Virus record (IMG/VR): IMGVR_UViG_3300031992_000089
Coordinates: 1,911-65,910 of that record
From: a virus
Lineage: Duplodnaviria > Caudoviricetes
Reading direction: 5' to 3' (one strand)
DNA: 64,000 nucleotides
The notes below the pieces were generated by a model. The model had not been told where the DNA came from. It did not search any database and saw nothing but the letters and a program-made list of their open reading frames with translations. Below, piece by piece: positions 2,805 through 34,369 of the stretch. The translations under genes and the position numbers were made by a program. The first letter of the stretch is position 1. Every line of letters starts with the position of its first letter.

Positions 2805-3767
2805 CTATGAAATGATGGTCCCGAATTTATCTACTATATCTCTAATTTCGCCCTTATAGAATACCAATACATTTTGATGTTGCCGACCTATCTTTCTGGA
2901 TTGGTTAAAATACTTCTTGGCTCGAATCGGAAGTGAACCTAAATTGTTTACAAGGATTAACTCGTTATAATATTTCAGACCACTATCCATAAGTATCTTA
3001 ATGGTATCGGGAACTAGACCTAAATATTGACTCTTCGCCATATCCTGAGGGCTCTGTCTTATTTCTGAAACAACTATGCAATAGAAGGATGATGGTTTTA
3101 GGATGTCGGCAGACTGCCGTAGGATGGTTCCGTACTTCTGCTTAAAGCACTCGTAATCAGGTAATCGGCTTAAATCTGCCGGATTCTTGGTGTATTGCTC
3201 AAGGTTGTAATATGGTGGACAAGTAAACACCATATCAAACTCGCCATACTTATCAAGAAATGTCGGGCTTCTCAACACTACCTCAGAATCGCCTTGACAC
3301 CATTCTACGGTACCACGAATATCGGAAAACTTCTCGGCAAACTCTTTAGCGTGACGGTTATTGGTCAATACTTGGTCAGGCGACAAATCAATACCTACAT
3401 AGTTTCTACCTAAAGATTCTGCAACTAACCCTCTTACACTTCCACCAGCAAATGGGTCGAGAATCTTCATGCCCGGATTACTGAACCACTTATACATCAA
3501 CTCGCATAAAAATGGGTCAAACATAGAAATACTTTCAGCGGCTTTCTCACTGTTATAGTGGGAACTGAACAGATTAGTGGGTGTTGCATTGTATCTCTTA
3601 ACATCCCTACCTTCTACGCTATGTGGCAGTATGTGTAACCAACGGCTGCGATTATTCAGCCACTCGGGCCTAGTACTATTCAATATAGAAAATGGTGCCC
3701 ACTGTGGAGCGTCATTCAGCAACTCTACGGGCAGGCGGGATACTAAACGGTCGAATAATGGCATCAA
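2805..3767 (-). CDS. SAM-dependent amino-type DNA methyltransferase (m4C or m6A)
   Basis: Motif I ILDPFAGGSVRG precedes motif IV FTCPPYY; C-terminal RKIGRQHQNVLVFYKG is typical of phage methylases. Confidence 0.8.
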   Translation of the reverse strand: MMPLFDRLVSRLPVELLNDAPQWAPFSILNSTRPEWLNNRSRWLHILPHSVEGRDVKRYNATPTNLFSSHYNSEKAAESISMFDPFLCELMYKWFSNPGMKILDPFAGGSVRGLVAESLGRNYVGIDLSPDQVLTNNRHAKEFAEKFSDIRGTVEWCQGDSEVVLRSPTFLDKYGEFDMVFTCPPYYNLEQYTKNPADLSRLPDYECFKQKYGTILRQSADILKPSSFYCIVVSEIRQSPQDMAKSQYLGLVPDTIKILMDSGLKYYNELILVNNLGSLPIRAKKYFNQSRKIGRQHQNVLVFYKGEIRDIVDKFGTIIS

Positions 3768-4816
3768 TGAAATCCTCCTTTAATATGTCTGTTTTTGAGG
3801 GCCTCGAAGGCTTTAGATTGTTCGATAGGGTACCACATATAATTATCCCACACACTCTGAAAATCTTCTGCTGGATAGCCGCGTTCCCTATATATTGTCC
3901 TCTCTAGTATGTCGCAACAATGCAAGTAGAATACCTCATCATACTCCATCTTATCATTATCCATTAACCACATAGCCTCTAGACAGCATTTCCAACATAC
4001 ACCGCATCTGTTATCAAATAATCTCACCCTGTATTTCTGTTCCGCCCTATGTTTCCAATGGGCTCTGAATCTATAAGGGCTCATACAAGATACAGACATG
4101 GTAAATAACTTCCAGTCGTTTGACAGCAGTTCAAAGGTATCAGCATTTGTCTCTAGCGGTATCAACATGTCAAACTCTGGTATTACATTCTGGACAATCT
4201 CTTTATATGCGTCCCACATCTCTATGCAGTCACCACCACATATATCAAACTCATTCATATCCAGTACAGACTTATTAAAATTACCAAAACACAAAACAGG
4301 TCTGTAATTATGGTACAAAGAGTAGTGTAGCGCACCATTAGCGATTATATAGTTCTTCAAAGGATGCTCTATGAACTGATGGGTTCCGGCTAGTTTGATA
4401 TAGTCTATGTATAAATCACAGCCTAGATAATCTGCTATTGCTTGTGCGGCTTTCTTCTCATCACCGTACGCTTTATTTACACCAGTAGCATGATATAGAT
4501 GTACTTTGTAGCCTTTCTGAACATAGTAAAATGCGGCTGCGGCACTATCTTTACCACCCGACAAGCACACGGTTATTTCTTTTTTTCGGGAAAATTTATA
4601 ATCTACCTTAGGAAAATGAAAGTCTTTAATTAGTGGTTTTCTGTACTGTACCAACTTGGAGTCTAATATCTGGTCAAGTTTAGTGAATGACGAATCTAAC
4701 CACAACGTATCTTCTGATTCAAACATATACTCGGTATCAGATATATAAGAATACAATGCCTCTATCATACTGAATACTCGGCTCTTATTTTTGTATTCAT
4801 GTATAACCCTTTGCAT
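3764..4816 (-). CDS. QueC-like PP-loop ATPase (7-cyano-7-deazaguanine synthase superfamily)
   Basis: PP-loop VCLSGGKDS; Zn ligands SC...CGVCWKCC; 4-bp overlap with the methyltransferase gene. Confidence 0.7.
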   Translation of the reverse strand: MQRVIHEYKNKSRVFSMIEALYSYISDTEYMFESEDTLWLDSSFTKLDQILDSKLVQYRKPLIKDFHFPKVDYKFSRKKEITVCLSGGKDSAAAAFYYVQKGYKVHLYHATGVNKAYGDEKKAAQAIADYLGCDLYIDYIKLAGTHQFIEHPLKNYIIANGALHYSLYHNYRPVLCFGNFNKSVLDMNEFDICGGDCIEMWDAYKEIVQNVIPEFDMLIPLETNADTFELLSNDWKLFTMSVSCMSPYRFRAHWKHRAEQKYRVRLFDNRCGVCWKCCLEAMWLMDNDKMEYDEVFYLHCCDILERTIYRERGYPAEDFQSVWDNYMWYPIEQSKAFEALKNRHIKGGFH

Positions 4817-5121
4817 CAGAATAGCCTCCTTTGTGCATACCTACGATGAGTTGCCTGTTCCCATTCTTTCTGGTACTTTTCGTTGTCGGCCTTCCACTTC
4901 TTATAACATACGGGTCCAAATCCCAATTCTTGGGACTCTTTGGTACGCAAACGTCTACCACATTTTATACATTTTGTATATTTTTCCGACTTTTTGGTAC
5001 AGTTACAAGACCTATCAACCATCAACTCGCTTCGTTTCTTTTCCATACCGCACTTCCTACAAACAAATGTATCGTTACCCCAATTCCACGGTTCGGCTTC
5101 AAAACATAATTCCCACGACAT
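4816..5121 (-). CDS. Zn-finger protein with a DUF6011-like motif
   Basis: CIKCGRRLRTKESQELGFGPVC; ends in QRRLF. Confidence 0.65.
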   Translation of the reverse strand: MSWELCFEAEPWNWGNDTFVCRKCGMEKKRSELMVDRSCNCTKKSEKYTKCIKCGRRLRTKESQELGFGPVCYKKWKADNEKYQKEWEQATHRRYAQRRLF

Positions 5122-5122
5122 A

Positions 5123-6111
5123 TCAATAACTCACCCTTTCTTTGAATAATTTACCACATTCGGGACATCTATAAACAACAAAAAATCCTTCTTTCGCAAG
5201 TGCTTTACCTAGCATACCGTACATCTCAATACCACATTTACAATGCGGACATTGAGCCCAAACTTCACCGTGAAAACAAGCACCAGGTAAACACTCAGGC
5301 ACATTTGAATAAATTATAGGCTTTTCATCACTCATAATCAGGTACCTCAACCTCTTCTTCCTTAACAGACTTTACATTATCCCACCATATAGCATAGGTT
5401 GTCTCGTCATCATCAAAACAAGCCAAAACAGGTGAAGTAATCCCATATATATAAACAGGACTGCTAAAAGTTTTCAGCACTTTGCCCTTAAATTTACCTT
5501 TAATAACTTTAACTGTATATAATGTTGCTTTCATTTTATATGCCTCACTCTATCTACACCACGCAGTTTTTCAGAAAACTCTTTTAATCTATTAAAATGT
5601 CCATGAAAATAAGGTTGGTATCTATTAAACCTAAATCTTTGAGCATCCTCTTCCATGTATAGACAAATGGTACACATAGTCTCTATCAACTCGATTAGTA
5701 AATCCTTATAAAGTCTAATCCTCTTTCTCATTTTCATCTACTCTCCCAAATGTCTTTAATGTCTAATTCCTCACGAACCAGAGCGGTTTCTTTAATAAAG
5801 GTAGTCTCTACCTCATACTCTTCATACTCAACTGCGAGGTATCTGGTAAATACAAACCCGTTAGCAATTAAATCTAAAGCATCTTGCAAAGAATACCAAT
5901 GTGCCAAGTCTTCTTTTCTACTACAAGAGGAGTACCAGTTTCTTCCGTCTTTATGGTATCTCTCATCATAGTCCATAGGTAAATCTTTCGTCTTACAGTT
6001 AGGCAATTTACCAATTCCCCAAACTAATTTATTGTCTTGATTATACCACAAGCCATTTTCAGGACTAATTGCTTCTAATCTATATAGCCACTTTGCTTCT
6101 TTCATGTCCAA
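5123..6111 (-). other. Four small hypothetical genes: 5123-5350 (Zn ribbon), 5328-5534, 5531-5737, 5734-6111
   Basis: Overlapping, translationally coupled ORFs. Confidence 0.75.
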
Positions 6112-7049
6112 AACCTCGCTAAAACATATTCTACGGCTACTTCATCATCGATTTTGCCGGTCTTAATGCCCAGTTCTGCACTCTGGGACAGTTTCATAAG
6201 TTCTATTAACTTATCAGGACTATATGTATTCTTTCTTCCACACGCCAATTTCACTTGAAATGGGGTAAGTCCTGTAACATCGGTTAGTTTATTACTACCA
6301 CTATATGTCTGCACCTGTAAAACATATCTGGCATTATTGAACAGATTAGATAAAATGTTCAGAGTAAACTCTCCCGAAGCGTAGCACTCATCCAGTAAAG
6401 CGTACGCCTTCTTTATCTTCCTAGTCAATACGGCATCGATAAAATCAAATATCGCATCTCTAGGCGGTACATACAGAGTGTTAGACTGGACTAACTTATC
6501 GAAGGCATCATCAGCAGACAGATTACCATGCATAGCCATGTAATGCTTTACCTTATCTAATTCTAATAGTATAGCACTGTAATTTCTGTCGCAGGCGTCA
6601 ATAAGTGACTGGCAATTACGATTAGACAATGCCAACTGTTTCTTTATGTAGTTTACCAATGTACTCTCTGGCAGATATTCAAACTCTACGATTTCGTCCT
6701 TAAAATTCTTGTAGAATTTGTTTCGCTTGTCTATGTTGTTAAACACAAGAATTATAGTATCGTTTCTAAACGCTCTATCGTCTCTTAATACGCTTTGTAA
6801 CTTATCGTCTGATATAATTTGTGTATCATCAGTAACGACGTAAATTGACGCATCAGAAAGCAAAGAAACAGTACGGGCAAATTTGCTCAATTCTATGAAC
6901 GTATCGAATGTTTTTATAGGTGCTTTACGTACTTTGGCAATTTGCTCAATATATGCTGACCTAACTACTACTTCCGGCCCGGTAAAGATATAATATCTAT
7001 TAAACTTGCCAGTCTGTATGTGAGATTTTACAACTGAAACATCCATCAT
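6102..7049 (-). CDS. holA: Clamp loader delta subunit (HolA-like)
   Basis: YIFTGPE N-terminus, ILLELDKVKHY, IFDFIDAVL and C-terminal IKTGKID pattern of DNA Pol III delta; adjacent to delta' and gamma. Confidence 0.75.
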   Translation of the reverse strand: MMDVSVVKSHIQTGKFNRYYIFTGPEVVVRSAYIEQIAKVRKAPIKTFDTFIELSKFARTVSLLSDASIYVVTDDTQIISDDKLQSVLRDDRAFRNDTIILVFNNIDKRNKFYKNFKDEIVEFEYLPESTLVNYIKKQLALSNRNCQSLIDACDRNYSAILLELDKVKHYMAMHGNLSADDAFDKLVQSNTLYVPPRDAIFDFIDAVLTRKIKKAYALLDECYASGEFTLNILSNLFNNARYVLQVQTYSGSNKLTDVTGLTPFQVKLACGRKNTYSPDKLIELMKLSQSAELGIKTGKIDDEVAVEYVLARFWT

Positions 7050-7849
7050 ACTACCTCTTTAATATCTATGAGCCACGAGTCGAACAACACTGATTTATTA
7101 ACCCCGGTTATTTGTAATGCCTGTAATTTTTTATTGGTGAGTTTTACCCACTTTCCATACTTCAAAACATCCGAGCGAAGTCGGTCGATGCAAACATCAA
7201 TAAACATACGCCAGAACAGTCTCAAATCATAGCCGTCCTGTGTATCTTTGAGTTTAATCTTGGCAGAAATCTTGAACATATTTGCCACAGATACATCTTC
7301 TAGGTTATCAGCAACTTTGTTGACATACTCGGCAAACTCTGCGGGATTATATTCAAAGATATGTTTAACATCTCCAGGTGTTTCACACACATTACAGATG
7401 ATGGACTTAATTGTAGCCGAACATTCTTTATCAATGCACTGACCAATTTCATCGGCACTGTATTTATCCATGTACATAACAGTACCGCGACTTCTAATAG
7501 TCTCCAGCACAGTGTTTATATCTGACACCGTCATAATGAAGTACGCATCTTGTGGCGGTTCTTCTGTCACTTTAAGAATACAATTCTTGGCAGCTGGACT
7601 CATGTTGTCCGCATTAGGAATAACATATACATAAGGAGACGTAATCTTATTTGCGTTACCTATCATGGCTCGCATATCATCTACGCCACAAGTATAAGTT
7701 ACAATACCTGCATTAAGTTTACTGGCTATATGTTCAGCCATCAACTTTCTTCCGCTACCCGGTAAACCTACTAAAATAGTGAATCTAGGAAACTTACCGA
7801 GATAAATCATATCATCAACTGTATGAATTAAATTCTTCTGACCAATCAT
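7046..7849 (-). CDS. holB: Clamp loader delta' subunit (HolB-like)
   Basis: MIGQKNL, degenerate Walker A GLPGSGRK, ADNMSPAAKNCILKVTEEPP, ETIRSR (SRC-like motif). Confidence 0.8.
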   Translation of the reverse strand: MIGQKNLIHTVDDMIYLGKFPRFTILVGLPGSGRKLMAEHIASKLNAGIVTYTCGVDDMRAMIGNANKITSPYVYVIPNADNMSPAAKNCILKVTEEPPQDAYFIMTVSDINTVLETIRSRGTVMYMDKYSADEIGQCIDKECSATIKSIICNVCETPGDVKHIFEYNPAEFAEYVNKVADNLEDVSVANMFKISAKIKLKDTQDGYDLRLFWRMFIDVCIDRLRSDVLKYGKWVKLTNKKLQALQITGVNKSVLFDSWLIDIKEVV

Positions 7850-8883
7850 TATTTAACCTCCGTGTATAAAATCATCATCGCTTCAATAGTAGCCTTAGGA
7901 GATGTGTCCCACTTAATCTCACTGTTAAGATTGACCAGCATTGACAGCATATCTACAAACTGACCTAACGACGCATTACTACCCAGAGCATCCAACTTGG
8001 CTTTATAACTCTGTGGAATAGTGGTGAAAGAAATATCTTTAGTCTGTAAATACTTCACCAAATCTAATGTAAAATTGGTGAACTGTTTCATAAACTGCTT
8101 CAAATCTCTACCGCTCATGTGGACAGTATCAATAATCGTCAACGTGGACATACTATCGTTGGTAACAAGAGAGTTGCATAATGCAAACATCGTCTCATAA
8201 TCTGCTAGTCCTAATGCTTTCGTCACACTATCTACGGTCAACTCGGTAGAGTATGCAATACACTTATCTACCATAGTAATAGCGTCTCTCATCCCACCCG
8301 ACGCTAATTTAGCGATATACTCTAATGCACCAGGTCCGGCACTTAAACTAGGCTCATTCTTTACTTCACAGGTGATAATATAACACAGTCTATCTACAAT
8401 ACCTTGCTGACTTATCCTCTGAAAATCATAGCGTTGTACCCTGGAAAGAATTGTCTTTGGAATCTTCTGCGGGTCTGTCGTACACATGATGAAAATAGAT
8501 TTAACTGGTGGTTCTTCAAGTAGTTTAAGCATGGCATTCCAGGCTGAATTTGATAACATGTGTACCTCATCCAAGATGAATACCTTATACTCGCTATCAA
8601 TGCTTGCCGTTTTTGCTCTTGAAATAATGTCCCTAATATCTTCGACACTGTTGTTACTAGCCGCGTCAAGTTCGATAGGATTTCCTTGACCGCGGTTAAT
8701 ATCTTTTGCAAAAATTCTTGCACAGGTTGTTTTTCCTGTTCCGGCTCCGCCGCAGAATAGATAGGCATTTTTAACCTCCCCTGTTCGTAACTGGTTCTGT
8801 AATATTGTCTTAATCTCGCCCTGTTCCGTAACATCATCGAACGTCTGTGGGCGATACTTAATTGCCAAACTCTTTACTGCCAT
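7849..8883 (-). CDS. dnaX: Clamp loader gamma subunit (short DnaX)
   Basis: LAIKYRPQTFDDV, GGAGTGKTT, ILDEVHML, NAMLKLLEEPP, ILSRVQ, GGMRDA; 344 aa, lacking the tau C-terminal domains. Confidence 0.92.
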   Translation of the reverse strand: MAVKSLAIKYRPQTFDDVTEQGEIKTILQNQLRTGEVKNAYLFCGGAGTGKTTCARIFAKDINRGQGNPIELDAASNNSVEDIRDIISRAKTASIDSEYKVFILDEVHMLSNSAWNAMLKLLEEPPVKSIFIMCTTDPQKIPKTILSRVQRYDFQRISQQGIVDRLCYIITCEVKNEPSLSAGPGALEYIAKLASGGMRDAITMVDKCIAYSTELTVDSVTKALGLADYETMFALCNSLVTNDSMSTLTIIDTVHMSGRDLKQFMKQFTNFTLDLVKYLQTKDISFTTIPQSYKAKLDALGSNASLGQFVDMLSMLVNLNSEIKWDTSPKATIEAMMILYTEVK

Positions 8884-10652: not shown

Positions 10653-11729
10653 TTACTCCTCATCGAACAGTGCGATAACCTTTGTGATATTGCCGTCTTC
10701 GATTTTAAGAATTTCAGACTTGCCGAAGAAAATCTCTACTGTATCTGCCAACACTGACTTGACCTGTGATGTGAACTTCTCAATGTCCACACAACAAGTA
10801 AACTCATCGGTAGCAATACTCTCTCGATACTCAATGACCTCTACACCATCAGTCTGTTTAGAGGCAATTTGCATCTCGCTATTACGGAATGTAATATAGA
10901 TGCCATTCTCATCCATCTTTGTCACAAACAGAGACAGTCTATCCAGTACACCTAACAGTGTGGCTTTATCTACGATACAGGATGCATTTGTATCAAGTTG
11001 AACAACCTTTTTAATAGCATCGACCTGGAAGTCATCAAGATATGGCATTAACTGACTGAATACAGTGCAACGGTCTGACTTGAACATGATATACTTATCA
11101 TTCTTTGTCACTTCGATTTCCTCGCCGGACAGCAACTCAATCATATCCATTGTTGTGGCAGTAACAAGAACTGGCTTATCAAAAACTTTAGTATTTACAA
11201 TACACACCTTGAAAGAGTCTGTTGTAATAGCCTCTTCCCCAAGATAATAACCAGTGTAGCATCCATGATAACCTTTAGTAGTGTCAAGTGATGCTCCGGC
11301 AGTAGCGTGAATCATCTTTAATGTGGATAAACTCATCTTCACTGTATCACCGTCAGTAAGTTTGCTACGAACATCGGGGAACTTAACCAGTTCACCTTCA
11401 CCATCATACGGAAGTTCCAAGGTGTAGTTGCCGTTGCCTTTGATTTCCAAAGTGCCATTAACAACTTTCATCTCAACATCTTCGCTGGTAATCTTTGAGA
11501 TGAGTTTTGAAAAAATAGCAACATCCACAACAACATAGAAATCGTCTCCAGTACAGTCCTCTGTCAAATACAGATAGGTATTCTCATCCGTCGTAGTTAC
11601 AGTAAGTTTACCTTCTTTCAGTTCAAGTGCAAGCATGCCAGTAAGCGGAATATCTCCTACACAGGATGCACATTTCATAGCTTTACTGACCATGTCTTGC
11701 AGTTTTTTGGTGTTTACTTTTAGTCTCAT
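10653..11729 (-). CDS. dnaN: Sliding clamp (DNA Pol III beta-like)
   Basis: 358 aa; N-terminal MRLKVNTKKLQDMV, LELKEGKLTVTTTD, TTDSFKV and C-terminal domain pattern of beta clamps; clamp loader genes nearby. Confidence 0.8.
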   Translation of the reverse strand: MRLKVNTKKLQDMVSKAMKCASCVGDIPLTGMLALELKEGKLTVTTTDENTYLYLTEDCTGDDFYVVVDVAIFSKLISKITSEDVEMKVVNGTLEIKGNGNYTLELPYDGEGELVKFPDVRSKLTDGDTVKMSLSTLKMIHATAGASLDTTKGYHGCYTGYYLGEEAITTDSFKVCIVNTKVFDKPVLVTATTMDMIELLSGEEIEVTKNDKYIMFKSDRCTVFSQLMPYLDDFQVDAIKKVVQLDTNASCIVDKATLLGVLDRLSLFVTKMDENGIYITFRNSEMQIASKQTDGVEVIEYRESIATDEFTCCVDIEKFTSQVKSVLADTVEIFFGKSEILKIEDGNITKVIALFDEE

Positions 11730-12308: not shown

Positions 12309-13160
12309 CTACGTTTTCTTATATCTGCCGCTTATAATCTTTGGAACTGACAACTCCCAATTTATTCGGTGATGCAATCTAGGATGACCTACGCCTACTG
12401 TATATATCTTAACACTGGATGGATTACAAATAACTGTAAAGAATGACTTGGTATATGTTCCAAGGGCTCTATACAACTCTGTCATTCCGCCAGATGTTTG
12501 CTGTGTTTGGGATTGGTCTAACGACATATTAGATATGGTAAAGAATAGATACCCTTTTGAGCCAAGATTAACGTATGTATTTACATCTTCATTGATACGT
12601 CCTATAAAGTCGAATCGTCTCTCTGTGGTACAGAAGAATGAGTTCATAGCCTTTCTCGCTATCTTATCCTTAAAGACTTTAGAAGTCGCACCACCTATAA
12701 AGTCTCCTGTTTGTGCTAATGCTACTGATAAGGCTCCGGTGAGTTCAAGAAAGTTAATCATCAAATCAACAATGGCATCGAACTCTCTAAGGTAAATAGA
12801 AGTAAACTCACCGTTTTCTAATCTACGCTGTCTAAAGTTAGTATAGTCATCGTCAAGTTCAAGAAAATATTTATAGCCTAGTTCTTCTGCAATATCGAAG
12901 CAGGCATTTCTAGCGTAAACAATGGCACGTCTGTCTGTTCCTCTATCTATGGTATCGAACTCCATAGACTTCTTTAACTTATCAAACATGACCACATTTT
13001 CTCTGCCGAACTTCTCATAATACTGGTCAGCGGTCTTATCTTCATTATCAATTACCAATATCACTCTATTGGTATTACCGGCACGCTTCAATGCGTCTAT
13101 GGTCTTAACTCTGTCAGGTCTTCCATGCGTAAGTATGAAAATAACAAAATCATTTCTCAC
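12309..13160 (-). CDS. GT-A fold glycosyltransferase (TAGT/GREB1-like family), copy 1
   Basis: FILTHGRPD, YARNAC, DxD motif LELDDDY, NED motif, ends ISGRYKK. Confidence 0.75.
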   Translation of the reverse strand: MRNDFVIFILTHGRPDRVKTIDALKRAGNTNRVILVIDNEDKTADQYYEKFGRENVVMFDKLKKSMEFDTIDRGTDRRAIVYARNACFDIAEELGYKYFLELDDDYTNFRQRRLENGEFTSIYLREFDAIVDLMINFLELTGALSVALAQTGDFIGGATSKVFKDKIARKAMNSFFCTTERRFDFIGRINEDVNTYVNLGSKGYLFFTISNMSLDQSQTQQTSGGMTELYRALGTYTKSFFTVICNPSSVKIYTVGVGHPRLHHRINWELSVPKIISGRYKKT

Positions 13161-13512
13161 GAATAACTCCTTTCACAAACCCTAATGCGTTAGCCGTATC
13201 TTTATCTAATACCACTAATGCGCTCTCTCGCATAAGGGCTTTCATTTCATCACTGGCATGAATATAATACCGCGCTATCTTTGTATAGTCAAACTTCATA
13301 AGTCTTGCACTGGTCAGCACTAAAAATGCCTTCTCTTTATCAGGTAAAGATGACGCCTGTATCTTATCCACCAGTTTATCATACTGCTCTGTATCAACTA
13401 AATCATATACAGAAGGTTTCAAACGTGGAATTGGCTCGAATTTAGATAATTCTTCTACATACTTGCCGTTCTCATCTACTAATGATTTGCCTACTGAAAA
13501 CGCTACGTTCAT
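13150..13512 (-). CDS. Glycosyltransferase partner protein, copy 1
   Basis: EKAFLVLTSARLMKFDYTKIARYY...SALVVLD; paralog of 14342-14749. Confidence 0.7.
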   Translation of the reverse strand: MNVAFSVGKSLVDENGKYVEELSKFEPIPRLKPSVYDLVDTEQYDKLVDKIQASSLPDKEKAFLVLTSARLMKFDYTKIARYYIHASDEMKALMRESALVVLDKDTANALGFVKGVIREK

Positions 13513-14345
13513 TTCTTGTATCTCCCACTCACTATTCTGTTGATGGCAGTTTCAGTATGTGTAATAGGCTTCCAGTGGTCTTTATAAAACCCCATATCAT
13601 TACAGTCTGGATGACTAACTACTGACATAAACGCCATCTTAAATCCGTCGAAAGTCTTATAAGTGTCCGTATTTCCACCAGCTACTTTTCCATTACCCGC
13701 ACCTACATCTATCTGCAAAGGAACATAAGTTAACCACACTTGACCCATACGATTATAATCAAGGTCGGTTATTAAGTCCTCAAACATATTCAGACGCCAA
13801 TCTACTTTATGCGCCCCATTACGTAGAAAACAGTTTACACTTATACGATATTTATTTGACCACTCCAACGCTTGTACGCCACATCTATACACGTTACATA
13901 CACCCGGCATTAAACACGCTAAATTAGCGTTCTCCACGTACTGAAAGCACTTCTCTATAATCTCATCGAAGATGCCGTGAAGATGAATAGTCTTTAACGA
14001 GCCGTCCACATCTTGCCTTAGCCGAAATTTATAGATGTCATCGTCCAGCATGATAAAATATTGATAGCCTAATCTTCGGGCAATATCTTCTATAGCATTT
14101 CTAGCAAACACAGCAAACTTCGGCACAGCCTCTGCTAACCCTACATCGGTGCGTTCAATATATAGGTTCTTGTTGAACACAATAATATTCTCCACACCAT
14201 AGTTATCTATATACTGCGGGATAGTAGGGTCTTGGTCATCTAAAACAAGATATATCTTGTGAGAAAAGCCTAGTTCTTTCAAAGTATTATAGGTTTTTTG
14301 ATTATCAGGTCTCCCATGTGTAAGAATGAAGGCAGCATAATTCAT
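13509..14345 (-). CDS. GT-A fold glycosyltransferase (TAGT/GREB1-like family), copy 2
   Basis: FILTHGRPD, FARNAI, IMLDDDI, FED motif, ends VSGRYKK. Confidence 0.75.
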   Translation of the reverse strand: MNYAAFILTHGRPDNQKTYNTLKELGFSHKIYLVLDDQDPTIPQYIDNYGVENIIVFNKNLYIERTDVGLAEAVPKFAVFARNAIEDIARRLGYQYFIMLDDDIYKFRLRQDVDGSLKTIHLHGIFDEIIEKCFQYVENANLACLMPGVCNVYRCGVQALEWSNKYRISVNCFLRNGAHKVDWRLNMFEDLITDLDYNRMGQVWLTYVPLQIDVGAGNGKVAGGNTDTYKTFDGFKMAFMSVVSHPDCNDMGFYKDHWKPITHTETAINRIVSGRYKK

Positions 14346-14749
14346 TTGTCTACCCTCACACCACTTCTGTCCATAATAGTCTGAATATCTTCTGTCAATG
14401 TGACGTAGCCGTTTCTAATCGCATCCTCAAAATCAATAAGAACTAATGCTGACTGTTCCATTAACTCCTGCATCTCTTTTTCGGAGTTGGCATAGTAATC
14501 TGCAATTAAGGCATACTTAAAAGCAATATGTCTAGTAGCGGCTAGAAGTAGGAAACGCTTCTCCTCTTCCGATACGTTAGACTCTTTAATGTTCTTGACC
14601 AATTGTCCATACTTTCTAGTATCTATGAGTGAATCCAAACTAGGCTTTACGACAGATGGTGTATATTGAGGTACTTTCTCACGCTTTGTATTTGTATATA
14701 GGTCGTCACTTCTGCTCTCTCTATCTTTAGGTTCAAATAATCCTTTCAT
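14342..14749 (-). CDS. Glycosyltransferase partner protein, copy 2
   Basis: EKRFLLLAATRHIAFKYALIADYY...SALVLIDFEDA; begins MKGLF. Confidence 0.7.
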   Translation of the reverse strand: MKGLFEPKDRESRSDDLYTNTKREKVPQYTPSVVKPSLDSLIDTRKYGQLVKNIKESNVSEEEKRFLLLAATRHIAFKYALIADYYANSEKEMQELMEQSALVLIDFEDAIRNGYVTLTEDIQTIMDRSGVRVDK

Positions 14750-14758
14750 TCTATCACC

Positions 14759-17005
14759 TCACAATTCTATTGAGTCTCCATACCACTCTTTTGAAACTTC
14801 TACGTCACAACTGAATGGCATTTTTAATATTCTTTCAGCCGCCTCACTCATAACTTCGGCTAATCTTCTCGCACATTCTTTTGCGTTCTTTTCCGGGCAC
14901 TCCCCAATAAGTTCATCATGCACAGGTATCAGTAAAACAAACCCCAGTTCTCTCAACTTCTCGTCTTTAGTTACTAATATCATAGCCAGTTTAGTTAAGT
15001 CTGCGGCACTACCTTGGATTCTAGCATTGACGATTTTGGTAAAGTCTTTCTCTTTAGTATGGTCTACAATCCACAAACCCTCTTTGTTTGCTTCTTCAAA
15101 TACGCCACGCTTATACTTTGTACGGCTTAATTTAGTAAGCCATCTGTGCTGAATATCCATCGGCACTTCTGTCGATACTTCTGAATCAAATGCAAGTGGG
15201 TCGTCGTCATGTGCTACCCCATCTTTCCACTTCACTTCATAGTCAGGCAACATCATAGAAGGCAGCCGTCTCTTACGACCACATACTGTTGTTACATAGC
15301 CTAAGTTTTCTGCCATCTCGATACTTGCCTGTTCAAATATCTTAATCTCTGGGTACTTCTTATACAGATTAGCCTTTAAACGCTTCGCTTCTTCTAATGT
15401 AATGCCCATACCTTCAGCAACACTATCATCTCCACGGCCATACAAGATTCCGAGCAATACAGGCTTTGCTAAATTACGGCGCTTCTTATACTCTGGTGGA
15501 TTCTTGTGTCCATCTTTGTCAAACTCACAACACTGTTCATACGGCACATTAAAACAAGCACTAGCAACGTGACTGTAAATATCATCACCCGATTTTCTTG
15601 CTTCATATAATGTCGGATAGCCCATCTCATTACAGAATGCCGCAAGACAGGATGGTTCTTGCTGTGAATAGTCACTTGATAACAGTACATATCCTTCACT
15701 AGCCGTAAACATCTTACGAATCTCATTGTGAGGTATATTTTGCATATTAGGCTTATCACTACTGAATCTACCTGTATCTGCTCCGCACTGATTAAACCTA
15801 CAATGAATACGACCGTCGTTTGGATTTACTACTTCGGGTAACTTATCAATGAACGTACTGACCATAGTAGAAAATTCTCGATAGTCTAGAATCGCATCTA
15901 CTACTGGATGTTTTGGCTCAATAGACATTAACGATTTCTTATCTGTACTTCTTGTAGGTTGCCCTCTATTATCCGTAGCGACTAAACCTAACTGGTCATA
16001 CAACGCTGTCTGTAACTGCTGAACTGAACCTATGTTAATGTCAGCAGATAGACCGTATTCTACACAGACAGTATGAAATGCCTTTTCACGCTCATCGAGT
16101 ATAGTATGATACTTATCTTTCAATTTCTGGTTAAACTCAAAATCAAATTTCACACCAGCATCTTCCATGTCAACTACAACATCAACACACGGCATCTCTA
16201 GATTAAAAAATACCCATGCAACACCGTTCATTCCGTTACGGTCAGACAACTCACAAGATGCATCATAATACAGATACTTCTTCTGAAACTGGTACAGTTC
16301 TAATGTAATCTTCGCATCGTTAGCCGCATACACATACGCCACACTTAACGGCACAAGATTAAAACATATACCATCGAATAAATCACTGAACTTATATGCC
16401 TCTTTTGTAGGGTCACCACAGTATTTATGATGAAGTTTCTTCAAGGCATTAGATTCTTCATTCTCATTCATAAGACGGGCAGCTAAAAAACAGTCCCAAT
16501 TACAATGAAGTCGAACACCTACTTGGTTCTTTATTACCCTAATATCAAATGTCGCATTGAACATGACAATATAAATATTATTCAGTCTTGCCAATTCCTC
16601 ACGAGCAACATCCATAGGCATCTGACCACTTAATGGTGTCTGATACACATAAGATATGTGCTTCAAAGGCACATATATAGTCTTATGACCTGTAGTTGAC
16701 AGAGAGAAGCCTACAATATCATCTACCAACGGATTAAGTCCTGTCGTCTCTGTATCGATAGCAACCACACCCTCGATTATACAAGCATCAATATAATCGT
16801 GAAGTGCTTCTGGTTCAGTTACACTTTCATACTCATTCACTACATCGCCCAGACTTGTAAGCATCGACCTTGCTCGGGCTATTGTATCAAGTAATCCCCC
16901 GCCCGACTTTTTCGGTGCGGAGGACTTCTTGGTACTTTTCTTTGCTAAGGTCATATCTGAATCTTTACCAGGTCTGGCTGGGATTTCAAATAAACCTTTA
17001 GCCAT
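14759..17005 (-). CDS. polA: Family A DNA polymerase with 3'-5' exonuclease, no 5'-3' exonuclease domain
   Basis: Exo I AIDTETTG; GRFSSDKPNMQNIP; motif A SDYSQQE; motif B RNLAKPVLLGILYG; motif C VHDEL. Confidence 0.95.
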   Translation of the reverse strand: MAKGLFEIPARPGKDSDMTLAKKSTKKSSAPKKSGGGLLDTIARARSMLTSLGDVVNEYESVTEPEALHDYIDACIIEGVVAIDTETTGLNPLVDDIVGFSLSTTGHKTIYVPLKHISYVYQTPLSGQMPMDVAREELARLNNIYIVMFNATFDIRVIKNQVGVRLHCNWDCFLAARLMNENEESNALKKLHHKYCGDPTKEAYKFSDLFDGICFNLVPLSVAYVYAANDAKITLELYQFQKKYLYYDASCELSDRNGMNGVAWVFFNLEMPCVDVVVDMEDAGVKFDFEFNQKLKDKYHTILDEREKAFHTVCVEYGLSADINIGSVQQLQTALYDQLGLVATDNRGQPTRSTDKKSLMSIEPKHPVVDAILDYREFSTMVSTFIDKLPEVVNPNDGRIHCRFNQCGADTGRFSSDKPNMQNIPHNEIRKMFTASEGYVLLSSDYSQQEPSCLAAFCNEMGYPTLYEARKSGDDIYSHVASACFNVPYEQCCEFDKDGHKNPPEYKKRRNLAKPVLLGILYGRGDDSVAEGMGITLEEAKRLKANLYKKYPEIKIFEQASIEMAENLGYVTTVCGRKRRLPSMMLPDYEVKWKDGVAHDDDPLAFDSEVSTEVPMDIQHRWLTKLSRTKYKRGVFEEANKEGLWIVDHTKEKDFTKIVNARIQGSAADLTKLAMILVTKDEKLRELGFVLLIPVHDELIGECPEKNAKECARRLAEVMSEAAERILKMPFSCDVEVSKEWYGDSIEL

Positions 17006-17649
17006 TAGAACCGATCCACTCCCCCATCTCTTCTACTCGGTGTTCTTCTAGGGAACTCTTCTTCGGTAGCCTTCTCACCTACTTCGGGAAATCTACCCTT
17101 TTCTACATAGTACGCCATCTCTTCGGCGCTCTTGTCGAGAATAATCGTGCCGAGAACATCAGGTACTTCCGGCAAATCTTCAAGAGTAGTGTCGTCCTTC
17201 TTAATCTCGTACTCTTTATAAGTCGTAGTAGTGTCTCTCGGCTTGCCGTTACGCTCGATTTCAAAGACGTGAGAACAGAGAGGTGTATCAGCACTAGAAT
17301 ATCTAGAACATATAGAAGAAAGTGTGCCGAGATACTTCTTACCACGCTCCCAAATCTTAACCTCTTTCTCATCAACGTCATACAAAGGCACAAATACTTT
17401 CGCAATTTGTGTTTTGTTAGCCGCACAGAGAGGACATACATTCTTCGGGTCTGTATATTCTCTGATGCAGTTTACATAGCGTCTCTTGCCATCTACTTCT
17501 ACTTCATGCACAGCGTAGCCGAATACATCTTGCATATCGTTATACATGAATCTCACCCTTGCGGTGTCTTTGTCATTCTTCAACTGAAAGAATGAACTTC
17601 TGCCGTTTGTCCCATAATTTTCTGCGTTACTTTCTGTAAATCTTGCCAT
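17005..17649 (-). CDS. Single-stranded DNA-binding protein (gp32-like)
   Basis: FFQLKNDKDTARVRF, C...CPLC Zn site, LYDVDEKEVKIWERG, charged C-terminal tail; directly upstream of polA. Confidence 0.7.
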   Translation of the reverse strand: MARFTESNAENYGTNGRSSFFQLKNDKDTARVRFMYNDMQDVFGYAVHEVEVDGKRRYVNCIREYTDPKNVCPLCAANKTQIAKVFVPLYDVDEKEVKIWERGKKYLGTLSSICSRYSSADTPLCSHVFEIERNGKPRDTTTTYKEYEIKKDDTTLEDLPEVPDVLGTIILDKSAEEMAYYVEKGRFPEVGEKATEEEFPRRTPSRRDGGVDRF

Positions 17650-27148: not shown

Positions 27149-27970
27149 ATGGAAAGAGACTTCAAAGGTGTATGGATTCCTAAAGAGATATGGTTATGCA
27201 AAGACTTGTCCGCACTAGATAAAGTAATATATGCCGAAATCAGCAGTTTAGATAATGAAAATCATTGTACCGCAAGTAATGAATATTTTGCCGAGTTCTG
27301 CGACGTAGGCGTAGCAACTGTAACAAGGTCAATACAAAAACTGATAGATAAAGGCTATATAGAAAGAGTTTCATTCAACGGCCGACAGAGGGTGCTCAAA
27401 TTGATTAAGCAGACTAATCAAAATGATGAGTCTCCCTCATCAAAACGATTATCTAATAATATATATAGTAATACAGATAGTAATACTGATATATTATCTA
27501 AAGATAATATATACAGTACGGATGGTGTATGTTCAGAGCCTAAATCAGATGTTAGTTCAAAGGCTTACAGTAAAGAAGATTTTCTAGGTTCTAGAAAGAA
27601 AGTAAAGCAAACTAGAAAACCATCATTGTATGAAAAGTGTGTACAGGAGATAGATAATTTTACTCACTCGTTAGTTGAAAGAACCTGTCTTATAGAATAT
27701 CTAGAATTAAGACTGGCTATGAAAGATAAACCTATATATGGTGTCAGTCAGTGGAAAGGTATTCTCAATAAACTAAATGAGTTAGTGAAGTCAGGCGAAG
27801 ATATTCAGAAGGTGATAAAGCAGAGTATAGAAAAAGGTTATGCTTCTTTCTACCCGGTAAGTAGCAGTAAGAAGTATGATAAACCACAAAATAAAGACGT
27901 GTTCAGTGAATACGGTGAAGTATCATGTGAACGCTCTGGTGAGGAGGATAGAACAGATGTCGAATTTTGA
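27149..27970 (+). CDS. Phage replication initiator (N-terminal winged HTH)
   Basis: FKGVWIPKEIW, ASNEYFAEFC..GVATVTRSIQKLIDKGYI; followed by DnaC-like and DnaB-like genes. Confidence 0.8.
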   Translation: MERDFKGVWIPKEIWLCKDLSALDKVIYAEISSLDNENHCTASNEYFAEFCDVGVATVTRSIQKLIDKGYIERVSFNGRQRVLKLIKQTNQNDESPSSKRLSNNIYSNTDSNTDILSKDNIYSTDGVCSEPKSDVSSKAYSKEDFLGSRKKVKQTRKPSLYEKCVQEIDNFTHSLVERTCLIEYLELRLAMKDKPIYGVSQWKGILNKLNELVKSGEDIQKVIKQSIEKGYASFYPVSSSKKYDKPQNKDVFSEYGEVSCERSGEEDRTDVEF

Positions 27971-28625
27971 TACAGGACCAGACTGCTGGTATCGAGAAGT
28001 ATGTACGAATGAATGTAACGGTTCATGTATAAGATACCTTGAAATGTCTTATCTTATGGACCATAGTAACATTCCGAAGAATTTACAGACACCTAAAAAA
28101 TTGATACCCGATTCTTGTGACTTTGATACGTTCACAAAACTGGCAGAGATTAAAAGTAATATTACCGAGTTTGTAAAAGAAGGACGCAGTCTGTATATAT
28201 GCGGTAGAACTACTGGAAATGGCAAAACAAGTTGGGCGATAAAGATACTATTGAAATACTTCGATTCAGTATGGCCCGGAAATGGATTTAGAACTCGTGG
28301 TGTATTTGTTCATGTGCCTACATTTCTGTTAAAGTGTAAGGACTTCAACAATAAAGACCCAGAGTTTGAAGAATTGAAGCAAAGCATACTGACCGCTGAT
28401 TTAGTAGTATGGGATGATATAGCAAGTACGAATATCAGTGCCTATGATTATTCTCAACTTATTATGTGCCTTGACGCTAGATTCTCTAGTGGTCTCTCAA
28501 ACATCTATACAGGTAATATTACAGATAAAGAAAATCTCACTTCGGCTTTAGGTGCAAAATTGACCAGTCGTATATTATCTGTCGATACCGTAAAGGCAGT
28601 ATTTTTAGGTGGTGATAGAAGATGA
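27957..28625 (+). CDS. DnaC/IstB-like helicase loader ATPase
   Basis: LYICGRTTGNGKTSWA, DLVVWDDI, RILS. Confidence 0.82.
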   Translation: MSNFDTGPDCWYREVCTNECNGSCIRYLEMSYLMDHSNIPKNLQTPKKLIPDSCDFDTFTKLAEIKSNITEFVKEGRSLYICGRTTGNGKTSWAIKILLKYFDSVWPGNGFRTRGVFVHVPTFLLKCKDFNNKDPEFEELKQSILTADLVVWDDIASTNISAYDYSQLIMCLDARFSSGLSNIYTGNITDKENLTSALGAKLTSRILSVDTVKAVFLGGDRR

Positions 28626-29920
28626 TACAATTACAGATTATTTCTAAAATGCTGAATGATGGTGAGACATCTATTGTAGATGACTTTATGCTTACCAGAG
28701 AATACTTTATTGGTTATGAAACAGAGTATGACTTTATTATGGACCATAAACAGCAATACGGAGTAGTGCCAGATAAAGCAACTTTCCTTGCCCAGTTCCC
28801 TACGTTTGAAATTGTAAACGTGCAAGAGCCTAATGATTATCTTGTGGATAAGATACGAGAAGAATACACTTACTATCGAACTGTACCTATTCTCAAACAA
28901 GCCGCAAAGTTACTCGGAAAGGACAGTAATGCTGCCGCAGAGTATTTGACTAATGCATTGAAAGATATTCAGCCTTCATACAGACTGGGTGGTGTGGATA
29001 TTGTAGCCGATGCAGACTTACGATACGAACAGTTTGTAGAAAGAAAAGCGCATCCTGAAAAATACTTCTTCACTACCGGCTTTCCCGAACTAGATGATAT
29101 GATTCATGGCATAAATCGTTTGGGTGAATTGCTCGTTATTATCGCAAGAATCAACCAAGGCAAGTCATGGATTCTAGAGAAGATATGCACACACATTTGG
29201 CAAATCGGATATAACGTAGGTTATATATCTCCCGAAATGGTCGTTCAGAGTATCGGGTACAGATTTGATACTTTGTACGCCAACTATTCAAATAATGGTC
29301 TGGCGTGGGGTAAAGAAGAAATAGACCAAGACGCATATAAGCAATACATAGATGAACTGAAACAAAGGGACAATAAGTTTATTGTCGCAGAGCCAAAAGA
29401 CTTCAACCGTTCCATTACAGTGACTAAATTAAGAAACTGGATAAAGCAAAACAAACTTGACTTTGTAGCCATCGATGGCATTAAATACCTCGCAGATGAG
29501 CGTGGTAAAAAGACAGATAAAGTTACTGACAATAGGGCACATATCAGTGAGGACTTGTTAGCATTGTCTAACGAATTGCAAGTGCCTATTTGTGTTGTGT
29601 CCCAGGTAAATAGAAGTGGCGTAGTAGAGAAAGGCTCTGACGATACACCTAAACTTGAAAACATCAGTGAAAGTGACAGCATAGGTCAAGTAGCAACTAA
29701 AGTTCTCGCCATTCATCAGAAAGAATATGGAGTATTGGTCATCAGTTCTGAAAAGGACAGAGACGGCGTAGTAGGCGGAAAACTTATGTATGACTGGAAT
29801 ATCAATACAGGTGAATTTACTTTTATTCCCACCTATGATGACGCACAGCCAAAGAATAAAACAGAAGAACAAATTACCAAAGTAAAGAAATCTTACAAAG
29901 ATGCCAAAGACGTATTTTGA
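28622..29920 (+). CDS. DnaB-like replicative helicase
   Basis: TTGFPELD, IARINQGKSW, ISPEM, IDGIKYL, SQVNR, ISESDSIGQ. Confidence 0.88.
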   Translation: MIQLQIISKMLNDGETSIVDDFMLTREYFIGYETEYDFIMDHKQQYGVVPDKATFLAQFPTFEIVNVQEPNDYLVDKIREEYTYYRTVPILKQAAKLLGKDSNAAAEYLTNALKDIQPSYRLGGVDIVADADLRYEQFVERKAHPEKYFFTTGFPELDDMIHGINRLGELLVIIARINQGKSWILEKICTHIWQIGYNVGYISPEMVVQSIGYRFDTLYANYSNNGLAWGKEEIDQDAYKQYIDELKQRDNKFIVAEPKDFNRSITVTKLRNWIKQNKLDFVAIDGIKYLADERGKKTDKVTDNRAHISEDLLALSNELQVPICVVSQVNRSGVVEKGSDDTPKLENISESDSIGQVATKVLAIHQKEYGVLVISSEKDRDGVVGGKLMYDWNINTGEFTFIPTYDDAQPKNKTEEQITKVKKSYKDAKDVF

Positions 29921-33825: not shown

Positions 33826-34050
33826 GTGAGACAAATGATAAAACTTCCGATAACAGGTAAACCACTAAAGCCTTGCCCATTTTGTGGTTGTGAAAAACTA
33901 TACTTGTTTGAAGATTATGTTTTTTCTTCCGCTTATGAATATACTAATTGTATTATCGAATGTGGTAGATGCAGTGCAACTATAAAAAGACCTACGGTAA
34001 TAGGAGTAAAGAGAGCATGGAATAGACGAGAGGGTGAGAAGAATGACTGA
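33826..34050 (+). CDS. Lar-like (restriction alleviation family) Zn-ribbon protein
   Basis: LKPCPFCG...IECGRC...AWNRR. Confidence 0.7.
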   Translation: MRQMIKLPITGKPLKPCPFCGCEKLYLFEDYVFSSAYEYTNCIIECGRCSATIKRPTVIGVKRAWNRREGEKND

Positions 34051-34369
34051 CATAGCGGAACTGATTAACCGAAGACGGCATCAAATGCTGGTACATTCTT
34101 ATCTTTACTACCACCTTGATTCGCCTGTTATAGATGATATGACATGGACGAAATGGGCCATGGAGTTACAAGATTTACAAGAAAAGTACCCAGACATAGC
34201 GAAGCAGGTCAAATATGCGGACGAGTTCAAAGACTGGGATGGTAGTACAGGTGCGTTTCTTGATTATATGAAACCTAATATTATGAAAACGGCTGATAGA
34301 CTTCTTCATGGATTTGGTAAAGTAAATAAGCCTAAACCTAAAACACCTAAAGCGAAGCGATTATTTTAG
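34034..34369 (+). CDS. Stand-alone NAD-dependent ligase subdomain Ia-like protein
   Basis: HSYLYYHLDSPVIDDMTWTKWAMELQDLQEKYPD resembles the LigA N-terminus; no adenylation domain; ends KAKRLF. Confidence 0.7.
   Translation: MRRMTDIAELINRRRHQMLVHSYLYYHLDSPVIDDMTWTKWAMELQDLQEKYPDIAKQVKYADEFKDWDGSTGAFLDYMKPNIMKTADRLLHGFGKVNKPKPKTPKAKRLF

Follow-up and report, generated by a model that had tools for sequence, protein, structure and literature searches.

We describe a short terminal peptide with a leucine-phenylalanine (LF) core which recurs on replication and DNA-modification proteins of a tailed virus (Duplodnaviria; Caudoviricetes), and for which the virus's own beta-type sliding clamp is the probable receptor (at a probability of roughly 0.7 by our own estimate, with structural modelling in support). 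The DNA analyzed is a stretch of 64,000 nucleotides, positions 1,911 to 65,910 of the IMG/VR virus record IMGVR_UViG_3300031992_000089, referred to here as the window; it spans nearly all of the record, which is 65.9 kb long and estimated to be 95% complete. Within it the peptide is carried by the family A DNA polymerase (PolA), by a small protein encoded next to a TAGT-family DNA glycosyltransferase (the partner), by an N6/N4-type DNA methyltransferase, by a small DUF6011 zinc protein and by a stand-alone protein resembling domain Ia of NAD-dependent ligases (Nlig-Ia).

A preliminary description of this DNA had proposed that these five proteins share a phage-specific clamp-binding motif. Translation gave the five termini at the coordinates and on the strands it had listed, with the reservation that the methylase may start MPLF and not MMPLF; the span which it assigned to the system, 14735-17005, takes in PolA and only the first codons of the partner. 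Judged from homologue alignments, the five terminal peptides are indeed one recurring, conserved short linear motif, which has the form M-x(0-5)-L-F where it lies at the very start of the protein and, with its basic residues, [KR]-x-[KR]-L-F where it lies at the very end. Its phage-specific character did not hold up, and by the same comparisons the peptides are a trimmed form of the bacterial beta-clamp-binding motif with its L-F core and not an invention of phages.

Terminal LF peptides and their homologues

PolA is the sole replicase seen within the window and was matched by PF00476 (polymerase, E 6.5e-86) and PF01612 (3'-5' exonuclease, E 3.5e-18). Its start codon overlaps the stop of the upstream gene (TAATG), and the translation reads MAKGLFE followed by the Lys/Ser/Gly-rich linker IPARPGKDSDMTLAKKSTKKSSAPKKSGGGLLD of ~33 residues, the Pfam exonuclease domain beginning at residue 59. 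LF was present within the first 7 residues in 119/120 of the best PolA homologues (50-94% identity), which usually start M[AP]LF[DKN][IV]PxRxG[RK]. A subset of these starts MEQ[VIL]SLFDD, MAQLSLFSD or MSQLSLFDD, that is, with the canonical bacterial clamp motif QL[S/D]LF, and a 67%-identical relative starts MAQRSLF, the QxSLF form. The peptide is also kept in three distant relatives, Streptococcus phage MS1 (MAQKGLFG), Clostridium phage FA88 (MALFNF) and locus L003 (MGTIDLFD), each of which encodes a homologue of the window clamp. The PolAs of a more distant group (26-28% identical; L044, L045, L049, L052-L055, L060, L065, L068) were seen to start with peptides resembling the clamp motif (M..Q[IM]PLF, MRQPSLF, MT.DLF, LQMAMF), followed by a conserved EW[VI]xPxE[FY]P block; the short IMG/VR contigs carrying this group showed no clamp.

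The partner has the N-terminus MKGLFE, with a GGTGA ribosome site 5 nucleotides upstream of its start codon. LF lies in the first 11 residues in 100/120 partner homologues, and a hydrophobic residue followed by F in about 112/120; it is the only conserved feature of the variable N-terminus, where all other residues up to the next conserved block (Y-T-x-K...P-Q-Y-x-P) vary freely. Residues 1-21 of the AlphaFold2 model of the partner had a predicted local distance difference test score (pLDDT) below 50, and a confident helical domain was obtained from residue 38 to 130. No Pfam family was assigned to the partner, a Pfam ParB match included, and Foldseek comparison of the model with the PDB returned no match at E <= 0.001; a weak match was obtained to the C-terminal part of PHROG 620, annotated 'ParB-like' (E 6e-7). 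The partner gene adjoins a TAGT gene in the window, in L003 and in L160, and is two genes away from one in L159. A second partner copy in the window falls into the same family cluster and has 42% identity to the L003 partner homologue by BLASTP.

The start of the methylase is ambiguous, since TTG at 3767 would give MMPLF and ATG at 3764 MPLF, with AGGAGG preceding both. Its orthologue in Clostridium phage FA88 starts MKNRLFDF, and 14 of 24 methylase relatives from IMG/VR start M..[LI]F(G), for example MEVDLFGNEI or MPLFDVGPQ; among those without N-terminal LF, 3/24 end in KYLF and 4/24 have an N-terminal ParB-like domain. In the closer relative L159 a methylase ending SRKLF adjoins the partner gene. 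The methylases of L136-L138, L134, L135, L140 and L146 are of the kind without N-terminal LF and have either a DWKYLF end (460-residue forms) or the ParB-like domain, and this tail or domain may be an alternative route of the enzyme to DNA. The window methylase is translationally coupled to a PP-loop (SGGKDS) QueC/PAPS-reductase-like protein of 350 residues with a Cys-rich C-terminal part (3764-4816, minus strand); the PAPS-reductase-like protein of the relative G016 ends RNKLF.

The remaining two proteins carry the peptide at the C-terminus. The DUF6011 protein ends QRRLF, directly followed by the stop codon. An IMG/VR scan with this protein gave two weak domain-level matches, and homologues were taken from assembled relatives, where [KRS][KR]LF was found behind the zinc domain, 0-14 residues from the C-terminus, in 5/8 small DUF6011 proteins (LF-like forms SRLF, FRLF and KKLF), two further proteins having RLW or LLGRF; the tails are otherwise dissimilar. 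A 70-residue Cys-rich protein encoded beside the DUF6011 gene (5123-5335, minus strand) ends in CPECGKLFKERVSY, with K-L-F nine residues before its end, which resembles the near-terminal KLF/RLF of the DUF6011 relatives. The Lys/Pro-rich tail of Nlig-Ia ends PKAKRLF, again followed by the stop codon, and all 6/6 of its local homologues have terminal LF, at the C-terminus in 4 and at the N-terminus in 2 (FA88, MS1). Among 150 Nlig-Ia representatives (50% clustering), LF forms the exact C-terminus of 27, in most cases with Lys or Arg before it, 22 have N-terminal LF and 5 have it at both ends (45/150 with terminal LF overall), and one representative starts MFEQLSLF, the full clamp consensus.

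The phage clamp and its modelled complex

The preliminary description had invoked a phage clamp, and a beta-type clamp with its own loader was found in the window through Pfam and through comparison of profiles with solved clamps. A profile built from 75 homologues matched solved beta clamps over the full length (7evp, E 2.9e-15; also 3t0p and 4tr6), and on this evidence the window clamp is a genuine homologue of the beta clamps, with about 25% identity to those of cells. Its 358 residues correspond to the three-domain bacterial beta clamps and not to a trimeric, two-domain receptor of the gp45/PCNA type. Every complete or long relative which keeps the PolA motif also encodes a phage clamp, mostly near PolA. 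The delta-like loader subunit (6102-7049) contains FARTVSLLSDAS near residue 60, which may correspond to the place at which E. coli delta bears AMSLF, the plug with which it opens the clamp.

A complex of the clamp dimer with partner residues 1-45 was modelled in three runs alongside three controls. The interface score (interaction prediction score from aligned errors, ipSAE) was 0.66 in all three runs compared with 0.00 for the best of the 3 controls, at least 37% of contacts were common to the runs, and the pLDDT of the partner was at least 44. The modelled interface lies between partner residues 1-10 and clamp residues 154-158, 170-175, 230-242 and 351-356. Partner residues L4 and F5 are predicted to touch clamp residues 170-175, 235-242 and 351-356 as well as 154-158; for their contacts with 170-175, 235-242 and 351-353 the expected error is 1.1-1.5 Å. 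Clamp residues 170-175 (TDSFKV) align with the TDxHRL stretch of solved clamps, and in the model LF is seated between clamp domains II and III, in the pocket canonical for such peptides. The peptide-clamp docking for which the preliminary description had asked was, for the partner, favorable at the level of prediction. Since complexes of this type abound among solved structures, the outcome means that peptide and pocket resemble a clamp-motif pair and is not proof of binding.

The properties of the proteins are consistent with clamp docking. All five window proteins have the LF core, albeit without the Gln of the full motif, and it sits on flexible segments, namely the disordered N-terminus of the partner, the PolA linker and the Lys/Pro tail of Nlig-Ia, in a genome where a beta-type clamp with a loader is available. 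According to a review of the beta clamp (PMC11139829, 2024), the Gln of the motif adds affinity and is not required, and terminal LF is equivalent to LGL.

The peptides might instead dock on another hub of the replisome (the SSB-like protein, the helicase or the clamp loader), a reading which we consider improbable. It draws on a second class of terminal-Phe tails in the same genomes, found on DnaB (..EDVF), primase (..EEVF) and the SSB-like protein (..D[RK]F), and the presence of this class makes it likely that in this replisome terminal Phe residues dock on proteins besides the clamp. However, the LF class is basic and not acidic, sits on PolA itself and grades into the canonical clamp motif QLSLF, and in the model LF enters the clamp pocket, the control with a substitute for the clamp scoring 0.00. 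T7 polymerase is bound by the acidic, Phe-terminated tails of gp4 and gp2.5, and the acidic Phe tails of the present genomes resemble these and that of E. coli SSB. In the window they were observed on DnaB (28622-29920, plus strand; KDAKDVF), on the SSB-like protein (17005-17649, minus strand; GGVDRF) and on an HTH_36 initiator-like protein (27149-27970, plus strand; RTDVEF). Among relatives, 12/16 DnaB proteins end [DE]x[VAL]F, EEVF or KEIF occurs at the end of many primases, and D[RK]F or DVF at that of most SSB-like proteins. These acidic tails probably serve a docking site other than that of the LF tails.

Distribution in related genomes and points against clamp docking

Within the window alone the excess of LF over chance is modest, with exact C-terminal LF in 2 proteins compared with ~0.3 expected and N-terminal LF in 3 compared with ~1 expected, and for this reason the case rests on comparison with relatives. 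A scan of IMG/VR with a single protein yielded one relative only, an alignment-based scan yielded about 20 useful loci of 80, and megablast of 10 kb against a phage collection gave no match. For the screen, 18 related genomes and fragments were assembled, and their genes were called by codon usage and clustered (1161 genes). The enrichment test used C-terminal counts only, and N-terminal statistics were taken from the family alignments, the gene caller having put the PolA start at an internal TTG. LF ended 24/1161 genes, whereas the frequency of the LF dipeptide predicts 3.5 (binomial p about 6e-13), and it is the fourth commonest C-terminal dipeptide. The carriers, identified by Pfam, included a family of ~305 residues with weak DpdA similarity (8/10 ending [KR]x[KR]LF, an MS1 protein among them), a SAM-methylase family (3/3), a C5 cytosine DNA methylase, an N6/N4 DNA methylase, a PAPS-reductase-like protein, a DUF6884 protein, a CxxCxxCC protein, an HNH endonuclease and the Nlig-Ia family. 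Because the carriers are almost only replication and DNA-modification proteins, the LF tail appears to be a portable module, and within families it changes between the N- and the C-terminus.

These counts bear on the possibility that the LF termini reflect chance or composition, or are degradation or translation signals without any docking role. The small excess in the window alone is compatible with such an origin, and LF near a start could stem from codon preferences after ATG. It is contradicted by the seven-fold excess of C-terminal LF across the 1161 genes, by the near invariance of LF amid variable termini, by its relocation between protein ends within families and by its restriction to replication and DNA-modification proteins. 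We regard this explanation as very improbable and reject it, the degron role included, on the enrichment, the conservation and the classes of protein concerned.

Several observations weigh against clamp docking or against modification at the fork. The Gln of the canonical motif is missing in most copies, about 70% of the Nlig-Ia representatives lack terminal LF, and the second partner paralogue starts MNVAFS without LF, so that a clamp tether would exist for just one of the two glycosyltransferase modules. The score of the complex may partly be memory of, or likeness to, solved structures of beta clamps with peptides, and its calibration, in which the ipSAE mark was reached by 58/80 solved complexes and 2/110 mismatched pairs, holds only roughly because custom alignments were fed to the model. 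The window genome, at 95% completeness, has two TAGT genes, yet of the enzymes which could supply a hydroxymethyl pyrimidine, neither a TET/JBP dioxygenase (PF12851) nor a thymidylate-synthase-like hydroxymethylase (PF00303) was found in it. In phage T4, moreover, the glucosylation ratio is reported to be set mainly by expression level and not by contact of the glucosyltransferase with the clamp (PMC13216743).

The distribution of clamps is a further point of this kind. The prediction that terminal LF would be conserved only in genomes encoding a clamp was borne out as far as conservation in orthologues is concerned and failed as to exclusivity, since two near-complete viral genomes (G039, G041) have a methylase with N-terminal LF and no clamp detectable with the clamp profile or PF00712. 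A third near-complete genome with such a methylase (G042) gave a weak PF00712 match only, in an open reading frame of 349 residues just downstream of the methylase. The motif is thus not confined to phages with their own clamp, and the host clamp may be the receptor in some of them. It is conceivable, if unlikely, that the LF peptides of the window are likewise clamp-binding motifs whose receptor is host DnaN, or that both clamps are used. The full bacterial consensus QLSLF in some homologues fits with this, as do the N-terminal (D)LFG methylases of the near-complete genomes and the M..Q[IM]PLF or QPSLF starts of distant PolAs on contigs where no clamp was seen. However, a phage clamp is present in every complete or long relative which keeps the PolA motif, the phage bears the cost of a three-subunit loader, and in the model the peptide docks into the pocket of the phage clamp itself. 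The phage clamp is accordingly the receptor which we retain in what follows.

Genome context, known systems and proposed mechanism

The structural module of the window genome is siphovirus-like. The closest cultured relatives of the replication module are Streptococcus phages MS1 and Dp-1 and Clostridium phages phiCTP1 and FA88, with PolA identity of 38-41%. The minus strand from 2.8 to 24 kb encodes the methylase, the PP-loop QueC-like protein, the DUF6011 zinc protein, the three-subunit clamp loader, the beta-type clamp, two TAGT glycosyltransferases with a small paralogous protein upstream of each, PolA, the SSB-like protein, RecA, a Cas4-like nuclease, a resolvase and a primase, while the plus strand from 24 to 34 kb encodes an SNF2 helicase, the initiator-like HTH protein, DnaB and Nlig-Ia. 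The features under discussion are collected in Table 1.

Table 1. Coordinates in the window of the proteins and peptides discussed, with the basis of each assignment.
Feature	Position	Strand	Basis
PolA, family A DNA polymerase	14759..17005	-	PF00476, PF01612
PolA N-terminal peptide MAKGLFE, proposed clamp-binding motif	16985..17005	-	translation
PolA linker, ~33 residues, between LF peptide and exonuclease domain	16886..16984	-	translation
TAGT partner protein, small helical, 135 residues, proposed clamp adaptor	14342..14749	-	no Pfam family
Partner N-terminal peptide MKGLFE	14732..14749	-	translation
TAGT-family DNA glycosyltransferase 1	13509..14345	-	PF20691 E 1.1e-22
Partner paralogue, 120 residues, starts MNVAFS	13150..13512	-	BLASTP, family cluster
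TAGT-family DNA glycosyltransferase 2	12309..13160	-	PF20691 E 1.6e-34
Beta-type sliding clamp, 358 residues, proposed LF-peptide receptor	10653..11729	-	PF00712 E 6.9e-7
Clamp-loader ATPase, gamma/tau-like	7849..8883	-	PF13177, PF12169, PF22608
Clamp-loader delta-prime-like subunit	7046..7849	-	PF13177 E 1.2e-16
Clamp-loader delta-like subunit	6102..7049	-	PF21694 E 2.3e-18
N6/N4-type DNA methyltransferase, N-terminal (M)MPLFD	2805..3767	-	PF01555 E 2e-13
Small Zn-ribbon/DUF6011 protein, ends QRRLF	4816..5121	-	PF19474 E 4.4e-11
NAD-ligase domain-Ia-like protein (Nlig-Ia), Lys/Pro tail ending KRLF	34034..34369	+	PF22745 E 2.4e-28

In bacteria the clamp motif QL[S/D]LF or QLxLxL is carried by Pol II, Pol IV, Pol III alpha, delta, Hda and MutS/MutL, among others (PMC11139829). 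The peptides described here resemble it in being short, in ending L-F within a disordered terminal segment and in their predicted entry into the domain II/III pocket; some homologues have the exact consensus, and both N-terminal (Hda-like) and C-terminal (Pol II/IV-like) placements occur. They differ in usually being cut to LF, which is flanked by basic residues or by the initiator Met, in that the proposed receptor is phage-encoded, and in their candidate clients, which are DNA methylases, the glycosyltransferase partner and, in relatives, DpdA-like enzymes. The C-terminal tails of T4/RB69 gp43, gp33 and gp55 (SLDFLF type) compete for one clamp, and these too are terminal hydrophobic peptides ending in Leu/Phe and common to several phage proteins; unlike the LF peptides they belong with another clamp family, have another motif length and are found on a set of proteins without DNA-modifying enzymes.

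The proposed link between a sugar transferase acting on phage DNA and the clamp which the phage encodes has a parallel in the T4 alpha-glucosyltransferase, which is reported to bind the sliding clamp gp45 (Sommer et al. 2004). A pull-down confirmed this contact recently (PMC13216743, 2026). The T4 clamp is, however, trimeric and PCNA-like, whereas that of the window is a beta dimer, and in T4 the enzyme itself touches the clamp, a task which in the window would fall to a separate small partner protein. The recruitment of a DNA methylase to newly replicated DNA through a sliding clamp would likewise have a counterpart in DNMT1, which binds PCNA through a PIP box (PMC9690074), although motif, clamp and domain of life differ and the relation is one of analogy and not of homology. 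ParB-like activators and fusions of phage DNA-modifying enzymes have also been described (PMC13229309). The partner is similar to such activators as a small accessory protein encoded beside a phage DNA-modifying enzyme and in its weak ParB-like PHROG match, and the LF-lacking methylase relatives with an N-terminal ParB-like domain are similar to the fusions; unlike the activators, the partner has no ParB nucleotide-binding domain. The 'sliding clamp' named in that work is the cytidine triphosphate (CTP) clamp of ParB itself and not beta, and it was set aside as a precedent.

In full-text literature searches, no account of clamp motifs was found for phage methylases, DpdA, hypermodification enzymes or glycosyltransferase partners, and the review of the beta clamp (PMC11139829) contains neither the word 'methyltransferase' nor 'glycosyl'. 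Within the reach of these searches, the statement in the preliminary description that no such system was known stands for phage methylases, DpdA and partners, and it has to be qualified more widely by the precedents of T4 alpha-glucosyltransferase with gp45 and DNMT1 with PCNA. The novelty would lie in extending the clients of the clamp motif to phage DNA-modification enzymes and to a dedicated adaptor.

The mechanism which we propose is as follows. The phage makes a dimeric beta-type clamp of its own and a three-subunit loader. PolA would be held to this clamp by its N-terminal peptide, which sits on a flexible linker of ~35 residues, and would thereby gain processivity. The same peptide would seat other proteins on the clamp behind the fork, namely the partner, the methylase, the DUF6011 protein and Nlig-Ia. 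The N6/N4 methylase would dock directly, and the partner would act as a clamp adaptor bringing the adjacent TAGT enzyme to the clamp; proteins with LF at both ends could fill both pockets of the clamp dimer. Nascent DNA would in this way be methylated and glycosylated while it is being made. Both this co-replicative modification and the adaptor role of the partner are inferred.

On a wider view, to which we would give even odds, the phage-encoded beta clamp may serve a large group of Firmicute-type siphophages as a tool-belt for hypermodification. Interchangeable LF end-peptides would plug in methylases, base-swapping enzymes of the DpdA type and, through a small dedicated adaptor, TAGT glycosyltransferases, nascent DNA would be protected from host restriction within seconds of its synthesis, and the module would move between protein ends and between enzymes.

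Should the LF peptides indeed bind the clamp, DNA modification in this phage would be wired into the replisome and would not act on free DNA, which would account for the quick protection of new phage genomes from restriction enzymes. The list of beta-clamp clients would gain methylases, a glycosyltransferase adaptor and DpdA-like enzymes, and a terminal basic-LF or M-x-LF peptide would provide a sequence rule by which fork-associated phage proteins of unknown function, such as the DUF6011 and ligase-Ia-like proteins, could be spotted.

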